DNA from: Candidatus Saccharimonadia bacterium | Lineage (GTDB): Bacteria > Patescibacteriota > Saccharimonadia > Saccharimonadales > DATKHC01 | Length of the DNA: 42,145 nucleotides | NCBI GenBank assembly: GCA_035510315.1 | Contig: DATKHH010000003.1 | Coordinates: 1 to 42,145 of the forward strand | Reading direction: 5' to 3' | Part shown: piece by piece, positions 1 through 4,359 of the stretch | Numbering within the stretch: the first letter of the stretch is position 1 | Layout: every line of letters starts with the position of its first letter | The notes under the pieces: model-generated | What the model was told of the DNA's origin: nothing | Database searches by the model: none | The model's input: the letters and a program-made list of their open reading frames with translations, nothing else | Position numbers and translations under genes: made by a program

Positions 1-3000
1 ACAGATACTTTAGTCGAAGTGCAAGACCAAAATCAGACACTTGTAGGTCTGGAGGGTTCTGAGTGCCCAACTCCCTCAGATGTAGCATTGGGACAATTAT
101 CTGTACAGGGTGAGATAGAGCCGACAATAACCCATGAAATAGCCCCAGAAGGTTGGCTTACAAACAATGCTCTTGGCAAGAAATTAGACATTGACCCGGA
201 AACGGTAAGAAAACGGGCAGTTGCATTACAGGAAGATCACCCAGATTGGTTTGGTGGTTTCCTAGACTCATCTGGCCACTCAAATGTGCACTATCACCCC
301 GATTTAATCGAGACACTGGCTAAGAGTGAGTTAGGATGTCAAAAAGCTCCCGAGGGGTGGCTTTCTCTAAAAGGCACAGGTGATTTAGTTGGATTTTCAG
401 ATGGAGTAGTAAGACAGGTTGTCGAAACATATAGAGAAAGTAATCCCGAATTATTTAGCACATTTAGAGGAAAAGGTGGTCATGTGACAGAGCACTTCCA
501 TCCTGATCTTATAGCTAAAGTTGCGCAGGTACTATCTGAGAGAAAACCTGCTCCTGAGGGTTGGACGACTGTAAACAGTGTAGCCAAAGCGCTGGGGGTT
601 GACTTTGGGTCTGTTAAAAAGGTAGTAGATAATTATCGGGAAGAACATCCTGAATGGTTTGGCGTATTTCTAAACCAAGCTAAGAGGATGTCTGAGCATC
701 TTTCTCCGGATTTAGAGTCAGCAATAAGCAGAGATCTATCGCAGTATCAAACGGCTTCAGATGGCTGGGATACCACCAATGGTGTTGCAAAACAACTTGG
801 GGTCTCTTTTATGACAGTACGAAGAGTAGCTGAAACTTACCGTGAAGAACATCCTGAATGGTTTGATATGCGTAAGGGCGCAGGTAGACAATTAGCTGAA
901 CACTTTAATCCGCAGCTAATTGGTATGATTCACGAAAATATAACTGGTAGAGAGCCGACTCCTGAGGGTTGGGTATCAAACCAGGATCTAGCGGAGCTTC
1001 TTGGATGTACAACAACTACAGCAGATAAAATTACAGATGAATTCCGCCAAGAACATCCTGAATGGTTTGGCGTATATAGACATAGTAGCGGAAGACTTGG
1101 CAATGACTATCACCCCGATTTAGTAGCGACAGTGACTCAAATGTTTTCAGATCGGGAACCCGTACCTGAGGGTTGGTCTACTGCTTCAGCAATTGCGACT
1201 CAGGTTAGTGGTGATCACCGCCGACTAAAGGCACTGGCTGAATCTTACCGCCAAGAACATCCTGAATGGTTTGGCGTATATCCAGAAGCACGTGTTAAGA
1301 GACTTACCGAACATTATCATCCAGAGTTGGTAAGAATCATTACTGAGGCCGAAATATCAAATCACTCTGAGGTAGCCGAAAGAAAACTAAGTCAGCTGGA
1401 GCAAAAAGAGTCGAGGGACGACTTAAAAGAATTTGTAAATAATATGTCGCAACCCGAGTCATTAGAAAGTCAGGAATTTCAATCATTGGTTGAACTTTTT
1501 GGGGGAGAGAGAGTTATAGATATTCTTTATCAGTACCACCCCGAGTATAAAAAGATATCTGTACCCTACGTAAAAAGCATTATTGCAGATTATCTAGGAG
1601 ACTTCCTCACGACACCAGGAGGGTTAGATTTAGAAAATCTCGAAGCGGGTGTAGAGTTCTTATTTGATTCTAGTTTGAAGGATGGTTTAACCGAGGTTGT
1701 AAAACAAGACTGTCTAAGATTTTATAATCAGCAGAGAAAAGACGGATTAACTACTGATGATCTCGATGCAATTCTCGAACATATTAGCGATTTACGCGGT
1801 CAAACAGCACACTTCTCAACAGAAGAACTCGGCGAAGTTTTTGAAGAAGTAGAAAGCTACTACAGATCATTATTTGAAGATATACATAAACCCGAATGTT
1901 TAGTTGATGAACTAAATCCGGGACGCTTATTCCCTGATCTAAACCAGCGAATCAACATTCACGAAATGGCGACAAAATACAAGATGCTAATTGCCGATGA
2001 AATGGGTGTCGGTAAAAGTGCCTCAGCTATTTTAACCAAAGAATATTTAGGAGTAGGCTTGGCTTTAATAGTTGCTCCAAGTAACGTAGTAGATACTTGG
2101 CAGAATTATTTGTCTGACAAAGTTATCGATAGTGAGCAAGTTGGTTACTTTAAACCAGGTCAAGCACCAAGAGTATTGATAGTCGAAAGCCTCGTGTCCC
2201 TAGAAGGAATAAATCCTACCGATTATGACTATATTGTTATGTCTCAAGAGCGACTTAATGATCGATATGTAGAAGCACTCCAAGAAGTTAATTACGGAAT
2301 GCTTGTAGTAGATGAAGTCCACAAAATGAAAAACTTAATATCAGGGAAAAGGGCTGAAAACTTAATTAAGTTAGCCGACGGTATCAAGGATACAGATGGA
2401 GCTAAATATCTAGCTCTATTATCTGGCACACCGATTCCTAATAAGGTCGGTGATATATCAATGGTCTTGAAGCTTTTATATCCCGAAAAGTTTGAAGGGA
2501 TCAGCAATAAAGAGTTAACTAATCAAATTCTATACGGTGATGCTCTGGATCTGCGTAGTCTGTTAGTACCAAGAATGCAAATGAAATCGCTGGCCGAAAG
2601 TATTAAGATGCCTAATCTTGAGGAAAGGATACATTTAGTTGAGTTGACGGCGGAAGAGCGTGAAATGTATGAGGTTCTACTAGAAGAGGATGAGATAGCT
2701 GCTTCACAGAAACTTCAGATCCTTAGGAAGTTTTCTCTAAGTCCATCCTTGCTTGATGCTACACCAGATATTAATGGTTCTAAGATACAGGAAGTTGGGG
2801 CAGCTCTTAGGGAAACTTTTACGAATAGAGATAAAGTTGTTATGTTCGTCAATGGGTATATTGAAGGTGTTATTCGAGGAGACAATACGATTGTCGAAGC
2901 GCTTGGTTTGCCTGAGGGCATAGAAGTCTTTGCCATCGAAGGCGAGGTTGAGAAAGATACACGTGTAGCTATACAACAGCAACTTCAGGGTAGTAACAGA

Positions 3001-4359
3001 AAAATGCTGGTTCTGGTTAGTGGGCAGACTGCAGACGTTGGTGTGGATTTCTCAGGAGCAGAAGAAGTCTATTTCTATAACGAACCTTGGACTATGTACG
3101 ATAAAAAACAGCAACTTGGACGTGTTTATCGCCCAGGTCTTAGTGAAGATTTAATTAGTCGTACTTTCATTACTAGAGGAACGATTGAAGAAGGCATCCA
3201 CAGTTACATAGGATCGAAATATAAAGCGATTGAAAAACTGCTCAGAGGTATACCAATTTCTGATCTTGAGCGAGAAATGCTTAAGAAGTCTGAAGACCAG
3301 AGTGATCCAAGTCTAGAAGTTAATCCGGAACTTGCTGAGTACTACTTCTCTTCTTGGGATCGAATGATGAAAATTTATGGTTACGTTAAAGAGCTAGGAG
3401 AAGATGACTTTGTTAAGTTTCTTGGTAAATATGGTAGAGAGTACGCAGATTGTTATGTAGATGTAGGTGGACGAAGTTATCAGGCGAATGCTAGCAGATT
3501 ATCCGGGACATTAATCGACCGATTTGTCCGAGAAAGGCGTAAATCACCTCAAGCAGTACGAGTTCTAGATATAGCGTCTGGTCCCGAAATGCTAAAAAGA
3601 CATATTAGCGATGGCTTATCAGATAGAGTTATTAGCTTAGATATTAACCAGCACCATTTTGCTGAAGACGGACAAAATAGAGCAGTTGGTAGCTTCTTGA
3701 GTTTACCAATTGCCGATAACTCCGTGGATTATGCCAACCTATCTCTTGCTCTTCACTATACTAATTTTGTTCCAACCAAAGGACAGTATGAAAGAATCGA
3801 AGTTCTTCAAGAAATAAACCGAGTACTATCTATAGGTGGTCGAGCAGTTATAAACCTTATGCATACTCTTGACTTAAAGGATGAACCAGCTTTCCGAGAG
3901 GCAGTTACAAAACTAGGTTTTAGGGTAGTAGAAAGATATACTGGTAAAACCGAAGATGGAGCCCACTTCCGAACCAGATTATTCACTTTAGAGAAAACAC
4001 ATGATAGCCCAAGGGATATAAAAGAAGCAGTTAACTTACTTGGCTCGTCGTTAATGAAGGGATTTAAGTTCACTAAAAGTAAGGCTAAGTTACGTGATTC
4101 ACGCAGAATAGCCACTTCGTTCTCCATTGAAGGTCAGCAAGGGGTAAAGACGAAGTTTAACGAAGCTGACAGAGTAACTCTAGAAGAGGAACGAATAACT
4201 CAAGCACAAATGACTAAACTCCAAAGAAAATATGGGTCTGTCAAAGAGATACCTCGTGACGAAGTATTAGCAGGAGGTTTTTCAAGGATATTTAATGGCA
4301 AAAGTCATGTTCTATTCAGACGACTTGTTGCAGGATCTGGTTCAGTAGTGCTTAGATAA
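1..4359 (+). CDS. Giant multidomain protein: six tandem 68-aa HTH-like repeats, an SNF2-family (DEXH) helicase/translocase and a C-terminal class I SAM-dependent methyltransferase. Probably 5'-partial.
   Basis: Uninterrupted 4.3-kb ORF. Frame 1 has no stop between nt 1 and the first in-window start (GTG at 19), so the gene may begin upstream of the window. SNF2 motifs: I ADEMGVGKS (about 1993-2019), II VVDEVH (2305-2322), III LLSGTPIPN, V/VI SGQTADVGVDF...QQLGRVYRPG. MTase motif I VLDIASGPE (3561-3587), plus ISLDIN and NRVLSIGGRAVI (Methyltransf_11-like). I found no DPPY/NPPY or PCQ/ENV DNA-methyltransferase motifs. Confidence 0.85.
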   Translation, partial: TDTLVEVQDQNQTLVGLEGSECPTPSDVALGQLSVQGEIEPTITHEIAPEGWLTNNALGKKLDIDPETVRKRAVALQEDHPDWFGGFLDSSGHSNVHYHPDLIETLAKSELGCQKAPEGWLSLKGTGDLVGFSDGVVRQVVETYRESNPELFSTFRGKGGHVTEHFHPDLIAKVAQVLSERKPAPEGWTTVNSVAKALGVDFGSVKKVVDNYREEHPEWFGVFLNQAKRMSEHLSPDLESAISRDLSQYQTASDGWDTTNGVAKQLGVSFMTVRRVAETYREEHPEWFDMRKGAGRQLAEHFNPQLIGMIHENITGREPTPEGWVSNQDLAELLGCTTTTADKITDEFRQEHPEWFGVYRHSSGRLGNDYHPDLVATVTQMFSDREPVPEGWSTASAIATQVSGDHRRLKALAESYRQEHPEWFGVYPEARVKRLTEHYHPELVRIITEAEISNHSEVAERKLSQLEQKESRDDLKEFVNNMSQPESLESQEFQSLVELFGGERVIDILYQYHPEYKKISVPYVKSIIADYLGDFLTTPGGLDLENLEAGVEFLFDSSLKDGLTEVVKQDCLRFYNQQRKDGLTTDDLDAILEHISDLRGQTAHFSTEELGEVFEEVESYYRSLFEDIHKPECLVDELNPGRLFPDLNQRINIHEMATKYKMLIADEMGVGKSASAILTKEYLGVGLALIVAPSNVVDTWQNYLSDKVIDSEQVGYFKPGQAPRVLIVESLVSLEGINPTDYDYIVMSQERLNDRYVEALQEVNYGMLVVDEVHKMKNLISGKRAENLIKLADGIKDTDGAKYLALLSGTPIPNKVGDISMVLKLLYPEKFEGISNKELTNQILYGDALDLRSLLVPRMQMKSLAESIKMPNLEERIHLVELTAEEREMYEVLLEEDEIAASQKLQILRKFSLSPSLLDATPDINGSKIQEVGAALRETFTNRDKVVMFVNGYIEGVIRGDNTIVEALGLPEGIEVFAIEGEVEKDTRVAIQQQLQGSNRKMLVLVSGQTADVGVDFSGAEEVYFYNEPWTMYDKKQQLGRVYRPGLSEDLISRTFITRGTIEEGIHSYIGSKYKAIEKLLRGIPISDLEREMLKKSEDQSDPSLEVNPELAEYYFSSWDRMMKIYGYVKELGEDDFVKFLGKYGREYADCYVDVGGRSYQANASRLSGTLIDRFVRERRKSPQAVRVLDIASGPEMLKRHISDGLSDRVISLDINQHHFAEDGQNRAVGSFLSLPIADNSVDYANLSLALHYTNFVPTKGQYERIEVLQEINRVLSIGGRAVINLMHTLDLKDEPAFREAVTKLGFRVVERYTGKTEDGAHFRTRLFTLEKTHDSPRDIKEAVNLLGSSLMKGFKFTKSKAKLRDSRRIATSFSIEGQQGVKTKFNEADRVTLEEERITQAQMTKLQRKYGSVKEIPRDEVLAGGFSRIFNGKSHVLFRRLVAGSGSVVLR
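142..1365 (+). repeat. Six in-frame tandem repeats with an exact 204-nt (68-codon) period, inside the giant CDS
   Basis: Repeat units start at 142, 346, 550, 754, 958 and 1162, each opening with [AT][PS][ED]GW. Consensus: PEGW.T...LAK.LGV....V...V..YR.EHPEWFG......G....HYHPDL. The string aagaacatcctgaatggtttg recurs at 641, 845, 1049 and 1253. An identical 34-nt block lies at 1044-1077 and 1248-1281. Confidence 0.95.

Follow-up and report, generated by a model that had tools for sequence, protein, structure and literature searches.

A giant protein of Candidatus Saccharimonadia and other Patescibacteria joins a hypervariable winged-helix array to a predicted SNF2 translocase and an Rrp8-like methyltransferase

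The DNA analysed here, referred to as the window, is a stretch of 42,145 nucleotides from a Candidatus Saccharimonadia bacterium (assembly GCA_035510315.1, contig DATKHH010000003.1, positions 1 to 42,145 of the forward strand), and its left end is occupied by one giant open reading frame (ORF) that runs in frame 1 of the + strand from base 1 to a TAA at 4357-4359, with the left window edge open. A preliminary description, made from the sequence alone, had read it as a single edge-open ORF of more than 1446 codons in which three parts are joined; the ORF has 1452 codons, and the three-part architecture is real. Specifically, an array of six winged helix-turn-helix (wHTH) units forms an N-terminal head, which is followed by an SNF2 ATPase core and by a class I S-adenosylmethionine (SAM) methyltransferase (MTase) of the Rrp8 type. 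A small gene that runs towards the giant gene from the other side encodes a protein distantly resembling the MPG/AAG glycosylases and is referred to below as the partner. The features are as follows, with hidden Markov model (HMM) independent E-values (i-E) for the repeat units.

1..4359, + strand: giant ORF, comprising a leader, six wHTH units, a linker, the SNF2 part, the Rrp8-like MTase and a basic tail; 1452 codons plus TAA stop
1..138, + strand: leader, aa 1-46, acidic (net charge -9) and non-conserved (0-24% identity to relatives)
139..342, + strand: wHTH unit 1, aa 47-114, in 68-residue register; HMM i-E 2.4e-26
343..546, + strand: wHTH unit 2, aa 115-182; HMM i-E 4.2e-24
547..750, + strand: wHTH unit 3, aa 183-250; HMM i-E 8.6e-28; inside the AlphaFold2 (AF2) model (predicted local distance difference test, pLDDT, 95.8)
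751..954, + strand: wHTH unit 4, aa 251-318; HMM i-E 1.6e-24; marginal HTH_29 and HTH_23 matches; inside the AF2 model
955..1158, + strand: wHTH unit 5, aa 319-386; HMM i-E 6.1e-25; inside the AF2 model
1159..1365, + strand: wHTH unit 6, aa 387-455; HMM i-E 1e-26
1366..1920, + strand: conserved linker domain, aa 456-640, found in all family members whatever head they carry
1921..3285, + strand: SNF2 ATPase/predicted translocase core, aa 641-1095, with SNF2-rel_dom and Helicase_C above the Pfam cut-offs
3286..4005, + strand: class I SAM MTase of the Rrp8/Methyltransf_8 type, aa 1096-1335, by Pfam, profile-PDB, AF2 and Foldseek comparison
4006..4356, + strand: conserved C-terminal basic domain, aa 1336-1452, net charge +12, packed against the MTase in the AF2 model and always accompanying it
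4374..4898, - strand: partner gene (174 aa), running towards the giant gene; it encodes a shortened, distant MPG/AAG-like (Pur_DNA_glyco) protein

The first in-frame start candidate of the giant ORF is a GTG at position 19, from which 1446 codons remain. In full-length relatives repeat 1 begins 20-60 residues after the N terminus, and in the window protein it begins at residue 47; because this lies within the relatives' range, few if any N-terminal residues are missing, and the true start codon lies at the window edge or just upstream of it. The giant gene has a higher GC content (0.40-0.445) than the window as a whole (36.6%). The protein is already in the databases but uncharacterised: an identical sequence is deposited at NCBI as 'MAG TPA: SNF2-related protein, partial [Candidatus Saccharimonadia bacterium]'.

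The six 68-residue modules of the preliminary description are confirmed by PEGW anchors at residues 49, 117, 185, 253, 321 and 389, an exact 68-residue period, and by the match of every unit to an HMM made solely from the units of other proteins (E 1e-24 to 1e-28). In the ungapped register the window units share a mean identity of 30% (16-41%), against 6 +/- 3% for shuffled units. Tandem Repeats Finder detected no DNA-level tandem repeat in the giant gene, so the units are old and diverged and the array is ancient, not an assembly artefact. An AF2 model of units 3-5, computed from an alignment of 40 three-unit segments from relatives (pLDDT 95.8; predicted template-modelling score, pTM, 0.79), has in each unit a short strand, two helices, a beta-hairpin and a further helix, and on this model each repeat is predicted to be a complete wHTH of the Xis/RacA/BldC type. 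The Xis/MerR-type HTH seen earlier is thereby borne out. The separate 'EHPEWFG...HYHPDL extension' that had been placed behind it is not; it corresponds to the wing hairpin and third helix of the same wHTH domain, HPEWF leading into the wing and HY.PEL capping the wing and beginning the last helix.

In Foldseek searches of the PDB with the three-unit model, local single-unit matches were to a RacA-DNA complex (probability 0.90), MarR (0.80) and the Xis of mycobacteriophage Pukovnik (0.75), and weak global matches were to the tandem winged-helix proteins AtxA, UFL1, ScpB, SarS and ESCRT-II, with E-values for the three-unit query all at least 2e-3. Pfam has no model for the unit, and a Pfam scan of the window repeats gave no HTH_17 or MerR match; single units touch many generic HTH models weakly, and solely unit 4 passes the cut-offs, marginally, for HTH_29 (29.0 bits, cut-off 28.1) and HTH_23 (26.1 bits, cut-off 24.6). 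The repeats also have a MerR-like PHROG match at E 0.007 and faint precomputed matches to PF26109, WHD_BrxR, which is also a winged helix. Across 447 units the invariant positions (P3, G5, W6, L12, L16, P35, W37, F38, Y41, P54 and L56) all belong to the scaffold, and variation, together with an excess of Lys/Arg (positions 24-25, 31, 39, 44 and 47), is found in helix 2 and the wing. Fold and precedent suggest that the head binds DNA.

The linker behind the head (aa 456-640) has no Pfam relative and no PDB sequence relative below E 0.09. The SNF2 part is a predicted DNA translocase, and its ATPase core is complete, as had been claimed: both lobes score above the Pfam cut-offs (SNF2-rel_dom at aa 659-904, 68.9 bits against 24.9; Helicase_C at aa 939-1046, 41 bits against 23.5), and motif I (DEMGVGKS, aa 666, nt 1996-2019), motif II (DEVH, aa 771, nt 2311-2322), motif III (SGTPIPN, aa 808, nt 2422-2442) and motif VI (QQLGRVYRPG, aa 1037, nt 3109-3138) are intact and are kept in 35-50 of 50 relatives. 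PDB sequence matches of the core are the SsoRad54-like protein of Sulfolobus (1z63, E 1e-12), ISWI and INO80. A PHROGs match to phrog_62, 'DNA helicase' (133 bits), is confined to the core, and the RapA family model is absent among the 19 NCBIfam matches of the giant protein at E <= 0.1.

The MTase consists of a Rossmann core preceded by an N-terminal extension of three helices, in which the motif RSYQAN is invariant. It had been described as Methyltransf_11-like, and it does pass that cut-off (27.7 bits against 21.2); Pfam, profile-PDB and Foldseek comparisons, however, make it more specifically Rrp8-like. Methyltransf_8 (PF05148) matches aa 1160-1333 over profile positions 48-198 of 219 with 31.4 bits, a small margin above the cut-off of 27, and the best sequence match of the MTase when the family profile is compared with the PDB is human RRP8 (2zfu, E 5e-5). 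An AF2 model of aa 1100-1452, covering the MTase and tail as a single compact body (pLDDT 91.1, pTM 0.89), again has 2zfu as its top Foldseek match (E 2.4e-10, target TM 0.67, 23% identity), four orders of magnitude ahead of the next, which start from 1e-6 and are RNA, small-molecule, lipid and protein methylases. The view that this MTase is not of a DNA type likewise stands: no DNA methylase occurs among the top 50 PDB fold matches of the model, the (D/N/S)PP(Y/F/W) motif IV is present in 0 of 49 relatives, neither that motif nor the C5-type PCQ/ENV motifs are present in the window protein, and Pfam and NCBIfam scans of the giant protein gave no DNA-MTase family match. Foldseek comparison of the MTase and tail with viral models returned just generic class I MTases.

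Motif I of the MTase, VLDIASGPE, lies at aa 1188 (nt 3562-3588) and the motif IV region, NLSLALHY, at nt 3736-3759. The invariant columns comprise the SAM loop D-x-A-S-G-P-E, an acidic residue past strand 2, the upstream R-S-Y-Q-x-N and an N...H-Y past strand 4, and since the SAM motif columns are invariant, the enzyme looks active. The last 117 residues are the sole basic part of the giant protein (+12); this tail (aa 1336-1452) has no PDB sequence relative below E 0.09.

About 50 database clusters have the full architecture (34-72% identity, lengths 1086-1839 aa), and 45 loci were found among one genome per species (185,579 species). Relatives with an informative taxonomic label belong to the Patescibacteria (candidate phyla radiation, CPR): Saccharimonadia/Saccharibacteria, Levy-, Roizman-, Taylor-, Kaiser-, Vogel-, Uhr-, Magasanik-, Doudna- and Peribacteria, as well as Paceibacterota, Minisyncoccota and 'Patescibacteria group'. 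Nine loci lie in automatically generated third-party annotation (TPA) bins labelled 'uncultured Gammaproteobacteria' or 'Bdellovibrionales' (L016, L018, L021, L026, L027, L029, L042, L044 and L045), one of which, a 928-kb contig, is also locus L001; these labels clash with the otherwise exclusive CPR spread and are probably mis-assignments. The preliminary description had reckoned with a small-genome host, and this fits: the window comes from a Saccharimonadia metagenome-assembled genome, and the relatives' long contigs measure 0.58-1.19 Mb, some of them complete chromosomes, with the giant gene amid FtsZ/FtsA, pyruvate kinase, transketolase and GreA. Family members are present on the complete chromosomes CP066689, OY970181 and OY970290.

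A tblastn search with residues 457-1452 against 72,556 plasmids and 50,697 phages found no linker, MTase or tail; the matches are to the SNF2 core alone, at 22-25% identity, and 0 of 59 plasmid and 0 of 18 phage records cover >=80% of the query body. The giant gene is chromosomal and apparently CPR-restricted. The alternative once offered for it, that of a conjugative-element anti-restriction giant, is not upheld, as the plasmid and phage matches are core-only and the gene stands amid housekeeping genes on chromosomal contigs. Large serine recombinases (~420-560 aa) lie 0.2-3 kb from the giant gene in L008, L009, L021, L024 and L046, a hint that some copies sit in or beside integrated elements. 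In L007, L023, L026 and L037 the giant gene is split: one to three ORFs with repeat arrays directly precede an ORF for the linker, SNF2 part and MTase. Such genes may be genuinely bipartite, or they may reflect frameshifts, pseudogene formation or errors of sequencing.

On a constant body, the head is both exchangeable and hypervariable. Among the genome loci the array has 2-13 units per SNF2-MTase gene; where fewer than five were counted, the gene is truncated by a contig end (L014, L020, L051) or has a diverged head (L048), and uncut genes range from five units (L010) to 13 (L042). Moreover, nine members keep the linker-SNF2-MTase-tail body and carry different N-terminal tandem repeats. The alternative head is a ~70-aa repeat, 'ELRAAHAKWK...FN..WL..NG', in L015, L025, L030 and L044; a ~85-aa repeat, 'LPQVDKETGIYTDENGEQWAT...VRSIRGR', in which a Xis-like W.T...GV..T motif can be seen by eye, in L028 and L031; a helical repeat in L046; and an array of the Pfam HNH_repeat ('homing endonuclease associated repeat', 65 bits, cut-off 26) in L049. 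L017 and L019 are almost headless. A sequence search with the commonest alternative head (that of L015) gave five matches and was uninformative.

The same division is visible between close relatives. In comparison with its closest relatives, P0002 and P0003, the window protein is 70% and 71% identical in the linker, 91% and 89% in the SNF2 part, 87% and 87% in the MTase and 89% and 85% in the tail, but only 32% and 33% in the repeats, where no unit-to-unit orthology was found with these relatives (all pairs 17-44%, no diagonal). Sliding identity leaps from 20-30% to 80-90% between aa ~470 and ~500 (nt ~1410-1500), which marks a sharp head/body breakpoint near residue 480. Third-codon positions of the body are ~50% different even at unchanged amino acids, indicating strong purifying selection on the body.

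The 68-aa unit is also found outside this family, in proteins (P0052-P0095) encoded by stand-alone genes in CPR genomes. In one group 5-10 units lie C-terminally on superfamily 2 (SF2) helicases of ~500 aa with ResIII/DEAD/PF18766 domains (for example P0064, P0066, P0073 and P0080; loci L052 and L053), and a phage-type integrase lies directly upstream of the L052 gene. In a third architecture a conserved N-domain of ~240 aa (motif 'CDEEGNRTFV') is joined to 5-15 wHTH units (P0052, P0055, P0057, P0059 and P0085; locus L054); the N-domain has no Pfam relative, and a PDB sequence search with it found nothing below E 0.09. The N-domain-type P0059 and the helicase-type P0066 are from the same assembly.

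Clustering of all ORFs flanking the giant gene at 49 non-redundant loci identified the partner, which adjoins the giant gene in 19 of the 49 (one of them weakly), in either orientation, usually as a protein of 100-175 aa, with two longer variants. It usually lies 3-158 bp from the giant gene; where that gene is split, it lies directly against the first of the repeat ORFs. Eleven loci, among them the window with its two stop codons 14 nt apart, have it downstream in convergent orientation, and six have it upstream on the same strand. The partner accompanies 14 of ~22 wHTH-head members but one of nine alternative-head members. No second recurrent neighbour emerged, loci without an MPG-like gene included; LigA or a serine recombinase is shared by close pairs only. 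A link with LigA, which is adjacent in L028 and L031 and 6.6 kb off in the window, was rejected as shared synteny of close relatives plus chance.

The partner family comprises 54 clusters, all 'hypothetical' and none with a precomputed Pfam domain. The partner of L045 matches Pur_DNA_glyco (PF02245) at 27.2 bits (cut-off 27) over profile positions 2-130 of 181, other partners have a sub-threshold C-terminal Pur_DNA_glyco motif, and in the PDB the family profile aligns weakly with human AAG, in two collinear segments (E ~0.4). A HMMER search with this profile through 1.84 billion representatives retrieved 151 proteins at E <= 1e-3, among them a class of ~200 aa (E 1e-8 to 1e-4); Pur_DNA_glyco is the only Pfam match in seven of ten tested members of this class, two of them above the cut-off (43.2 and 35.3 bits). 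By these profile comparisons the partner family is probably a distant, truncated branch of the MPG/AAG superfamily, at 100-175 aa against ~200 and with the C-terminal third missing. In a joint alignment the motif with the catalytic Glu and intercalating Tyr reads VEGY in the ~200-aa proteins and VEGF, TEAY, VEPY or VEDY in partners; E-x-Y is retained in the partners of L022, L036, L045 and L050 and is replaced in the window partner and its close relatives (VLPQ, VNPQ). Because it lacks E-x-Y, the window partner is probably a binder rather than a glycosylase. DNA glycosylases are established as defence effectors, for example Brig1, which is antiviral through modified bases (PMC11078745). A 2025 survey of defence glycosylases makes no mention of MPG/AAG or of a methyltransferase pairing.

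On the other side of the partner gene, 1.9-2.4 kb from the giant gene, the window encodes a small XRE-type HTH regulator (6271-6552, + strand), the sole neighbour with a PHROGs match, and a PLD-family nuclease-like protein (6766-7302, - strand; PLDc_2; PADLOC MkoC 53 bits, DrmC 22 bits). The ORFs around them at 5040-5600, 5655-6278 and 7652-8449 have no family match.

Collectively, these observations favour, with a rough probability of 0.4, a reading in which the giant protein is a methylase that tracks along DNA and is targeted by its variable head, possibly to deposit N-methylpurine marks for the partner to read or excise; it would thus be a chromosomal, apparently CPR-restricted single polypeptide that combines recognition of a target with ATP-driven DNA translocation and methyl transfer. 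The head would dock the enzyme on DNA, probably at sites that resemble direct repeats or are defined by shape, in the manner of free BldC and Xis multimers, and its variability would set a strain-specific target range, like the swappable specificity domains of restriction-modification systems. The SNF2 motor would next track along or distort the duplex, and the MTase and basic tail would methylate a base exposed by the distortion. The most economical guess for the product is a ring-nitrogen methylpurine in DNA, because the nearest MTase relative is an adenine-N1 RNA methylase and the partner probably descends from N-methylpurine glycosylases. The partner would read this product, excising it where E-x-Y is kept and merely binding it in the window lineage. 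The role of the system would be to discriminate or mark particular DNA, in a defence-like manner or in the control of elements, and not housekeeping.

The two halves of this reading differ in strength. DNA as the scaffold is indicated by the SNF2 motor, the Xis/BldC-type units, the HNH_repeat array of one alternative head and the probable glycosylase ancestry of the partner. A DNA base as the methyl acceptor is the weaker argument, which comes down to the partner and the ring-nitrogen chemistry of Rrp8 (PMC3553958). A sharper version of the idea, which we consider doubtful, is that head-selected DNA is given a lesion-type methylpurine (m1A, m3A) and that the MPG-like partner makes abasic sites there, or shields or reads the mark where its catalytic residues have been lost. 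Such a 'write a lesion, then excise it' system, for restriction or genome marking, would have swappable specificity and be known so far almost only from CPR.

Several observations count against the favoured reading. The window array has a net charge of -19, and across the 447 units the average net charge is neutral, an unusual property in a DNA-binding module. With synonymous sites close to saturation, the head could owe its hypervariability to relaxed constraint instead of cassette exchange or diversifying selection. None of the nearest MTase relatives acts on DNA; their substrates are RNA, small molecules, lipids or proteins. The partner is not obligatory, being absent from ~18 loci with both flanks and from eight of nine alternative-head members, and the window copy has neither the catalytic Glu and Tyr nor a direct Pfam match. 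Finally, when the giant protein, four of its neighbours and four further proteins with repeats were scanned with PADLOC, the giant protein had generic SNF2-core matches only (<=65 bits) and the scan as a whole showed no system membership; the neighbourhoods are not defence islands.

The methyl acceptor might instead be RNA (rRNA, tRNA or nascent transcripts), with head and motor placing the enzyme on transcribed DNA or on RNA-protein complexes, as a RapA-like modifier coupled to transcription or ribosome biogenesis in organisms with unusual ribosomes. We hold this to be on the unlikely side, even though RRP8/nucleomethylin is by far the closest MTase relative in sequence and structure and Rrp8 is an rRNA m1A methylase (PMC3553958). 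The Foldseek neighbours of the MTase also include Trm11, Bud23, METTL6 and TrmI, tandem winged helices can bind RNA (SelB is in the fold list of the repeats), and the gene is chromosomal, amid housekeeping genes. A housekeeping modifier would, however, be expected to be widespread, whereas the giant gene was found in just 45 of 185,579 species and has a hypervariable, swappable head; SNF2 family enzymes are double-stranded DNA translocases, no RapA match was found in NCBIfam, one alternative head is a homing-endonuclease DNA-binding repeat, and the partner is probably of DNA-glycosylase descent. A protein acceptor is a more doubtful proposal still: the head would anchor on DNA, the motor would displace or reposition a DNA-bound protein, and the MTase would methylate that protein, be it a nucleoid protein, RNA polymerase or a protein of an invader. 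Eukaryotic SNF2 remodellers do cooperate with protein-modifying partners, protein MTases occur among the class I Methyltransf_11-like folds, the fold list has CypM and further enzymes that do not act on nucleic acids, and an acidic head could bind basic DNA-associated proteins instead of DNA. Yet the only gene linked to the family is glycosylase-like and no candidate substrate gene is linked to it, the basic tail packed on the MTase suits a nucleic-acid substrate, and Pfam and NCBIfam show no similarity to characterised protein MTase families beyond the level of the generic fold.

A conventional epigenetic defence or anti-restriction system, either a DISARM/BREX-like SNF2 with a protective methylase or a mobile-element SNF2-methylase giant, is very unlikely. 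An SNF2 protein with an MTase is the signature of DISARM class 1, the PADLOC core matches are to ZorD, DpdE and DrmD, an MkoC/DrmC-like PLD nuclease gene lies 2.4 kb away, large serine recombinases lie within 0.2-3 kb in five loci, and the GC content of the gene is 40-44% against ~36% for the window. Against these stand the confinement of all model matches to the core, far under the cut-offs (DrmD 43 bits against 950), the absence of DrmA and DrmB, a PLD gene that is not conserved in other loci, an MTase that is neither a DNA amino- nor a C5-MTase, and the lack of any match beyond the SNF2 core in the 72,556 plasmids or 50,697 phages; among the neighbours, the XRE-type regulator alone matches a phage family. 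That the fusion is an assembly chimera, a read-through of separate genes or a decaying pseudogene is hardly credible. The contig edge does cut the ORF, and in four other loci repeat ORF and body ORF are split. However, the recurrence of the architecture in more than 45 independent assemblies excludes the chimera about which the preliminary description had been concerned, the architecture is continuous in more than 40 independent assemblies from different projects, the catalytic motifs are conserved, purifying selection acts on the body, both AF2 models have high confidence, and the complete chromosomes with family members amount in effect to long reads spanning the gene.

CPR genomes are ~1 Mb in size, yet some devote 4-6 kb to the giant gene. 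If the favoured reading is right, this would be the first RNA-type (Rrp8-like) methylase recruited to a DNA motor, and the first genetic pairing of a methyltransferase with an alkylpurine-glycosylase-like protein, the mark being of a lesion type and not protective; we know of no MPG that is genetically paired with a methyltransferase. Whatever the mechanism, the wHTH arrays, predicted to be rigid and varying in number and sequence, are a naturally modular scaffold with which DNA might be read one repeat at a time, and the combination of a hypervariable head with a constant body offers a comparative handle on what episymbiotic CPR lineages must tell apart.

The remaining window holds ordinary cellular genes, among them those for LemA, HtpX, LigA, tRNA-Ala, a MurF-like protein, Ddl, LeuRS, NusB, RNase III, S16, TrmD, CydAB and DinB. 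Two further observations concern these parts. The leucyl-tRNA synthetase (17565-20450, + strand) contains an inserted NUDIX hydrolase domain (aa 378-506; PF00293, 47.5 bits, cut-off 21.1) directly past its editing domain (aa 220-369), which is unusual inside an aminoacyl-tRNA synthetase. A nickel superoxide dismutase (24242-24658, + strand; Sod_Ni 147 bits, with the Ni-hook HCDLPCGVYDP near the N terminus) is overlapped at its gene end by an S26/S24-type peptidase (24634-24945, + strand), and by sequence the pair looks like SodN with its maturation protease; the same Saccharimonadia genome also encodes a cytochrome bd oxidase (27856-30164).

Several parts of the giant protein have known counterparts from which they depart. 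BldC is a 68-residue MerR-like wHTH protein that forms head-to-tail multimers on DNA direct repeats and distorts the DNA, and RacA and Xis were named as its structural relatives by the BldC authors (PMC5859096); head-to-tail multimerisation on direct repeats with DNA distortion is common to BldC and Xis (PMC5859096, PMC7145599). The window unit is predicted to have the same wHTH fold as BldC, lambda-type Xis and RacA and is the same size as BldC. In contrast to these single-domain proteins, which multimerise non-covalently, the giant genes encode 2-13 covalent units, and the stand-alone arrays up to 15, in a fixed predicted inter-unit geometry (pTM 0.79); the units range from net neutral to acidic, form the head of an enzyme, and are marked by the PEGW, HPEWF and HY.PEL scaffold motifs, which are not in the Pfam HTH_17 and MerR models. 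Yeast Rrp8 is the m1A645 rRNA methylase, which acts on adenine-N1 in 25S/28S rRNA (PMC3553958). Rrp8/nucleomethylin is the nearest relative of the giant MTase domain, the match taking in the post-core strand 'KLGFKVV'. Whereas eukaryotic, nucleolar Rrp8 stands alone (PMC3553958), the giant MTase is fused to a predicted DNA motor and has its own three-helix N-terminal extension, with the invariant RSYQAN, and a 117-aa basic tail.

With DISARM class 1 (DrmD SNF2, DrmMI methylase and DrmA/B/C) the family shares an SNF2 ATPase associated with a SAM MTase, a PLD nuclease nearby and a sporadic spread. The giant family differs in having motor and MTase on a single polypeptide and an Rrp8-like MTase where that of DISARM is a DNA N6-adenine enzyme, and its repeat-array head and MPG-like partner have no DISARM counterpart; DrmA (helicase) and DrmB (DUF1998) were found neither among the window neighbours (Pfam, PADLOC) nor in related loci. 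Zorya ZorD and Dpd DpdE also contain SNF2 domains, and the giant protein matches them in the core only. Membership in DISARM, Zorya, Dpd or BREX was rejected, since the PADLOC and NCBIfam matches are core-only and far below the cut-offs (NF038318, DrmD, 43 bits against 950; NF038317, 30 bits against 610). Helicase-DNA methylase giants of plasmids, integrative and conjugative elements and phages, such as DarB of phage P1, have DNA amino-methylase domains and are carried by mobile elements. They resemble the giant family in being very large proteins that join an SF2 motor to a methyltransferase; the giant family differs in its chromosomal gene, in an MTase that is not a DNA amino-methylase, and in a similarity to plasmid and phage proteins that is limited to the SNF2 core. 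The target-recognition domains of type I HsdS are exchangeable specificity modules, and there is a functional analogy with them, in that a conserved enzymatic body is combined, across a sharp boundary, with an exchangeable, fast-diverging module that would confer specificity. The two are unrelated in sequence and structure, and in the giant protein the variable module is an array of tandem repeats within the polypeptide of the enzyme itself. Literature searches on this architecture, on SNF2 proteins in Saccharibacteria/CPR and on a methylpurine glycosylase paired with SNF2 and an MTase turned up no earlier description; one 2026 preprint treats SWI2/SNF2-linked methyltransferases in CPR in general terms only. 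The giant family is thus an SNF2-plus-methylase family set apart from every described member by the class of its MTase, its covalent wHTH array, its interchangeable, hypervariable head and its MPG-like partner.

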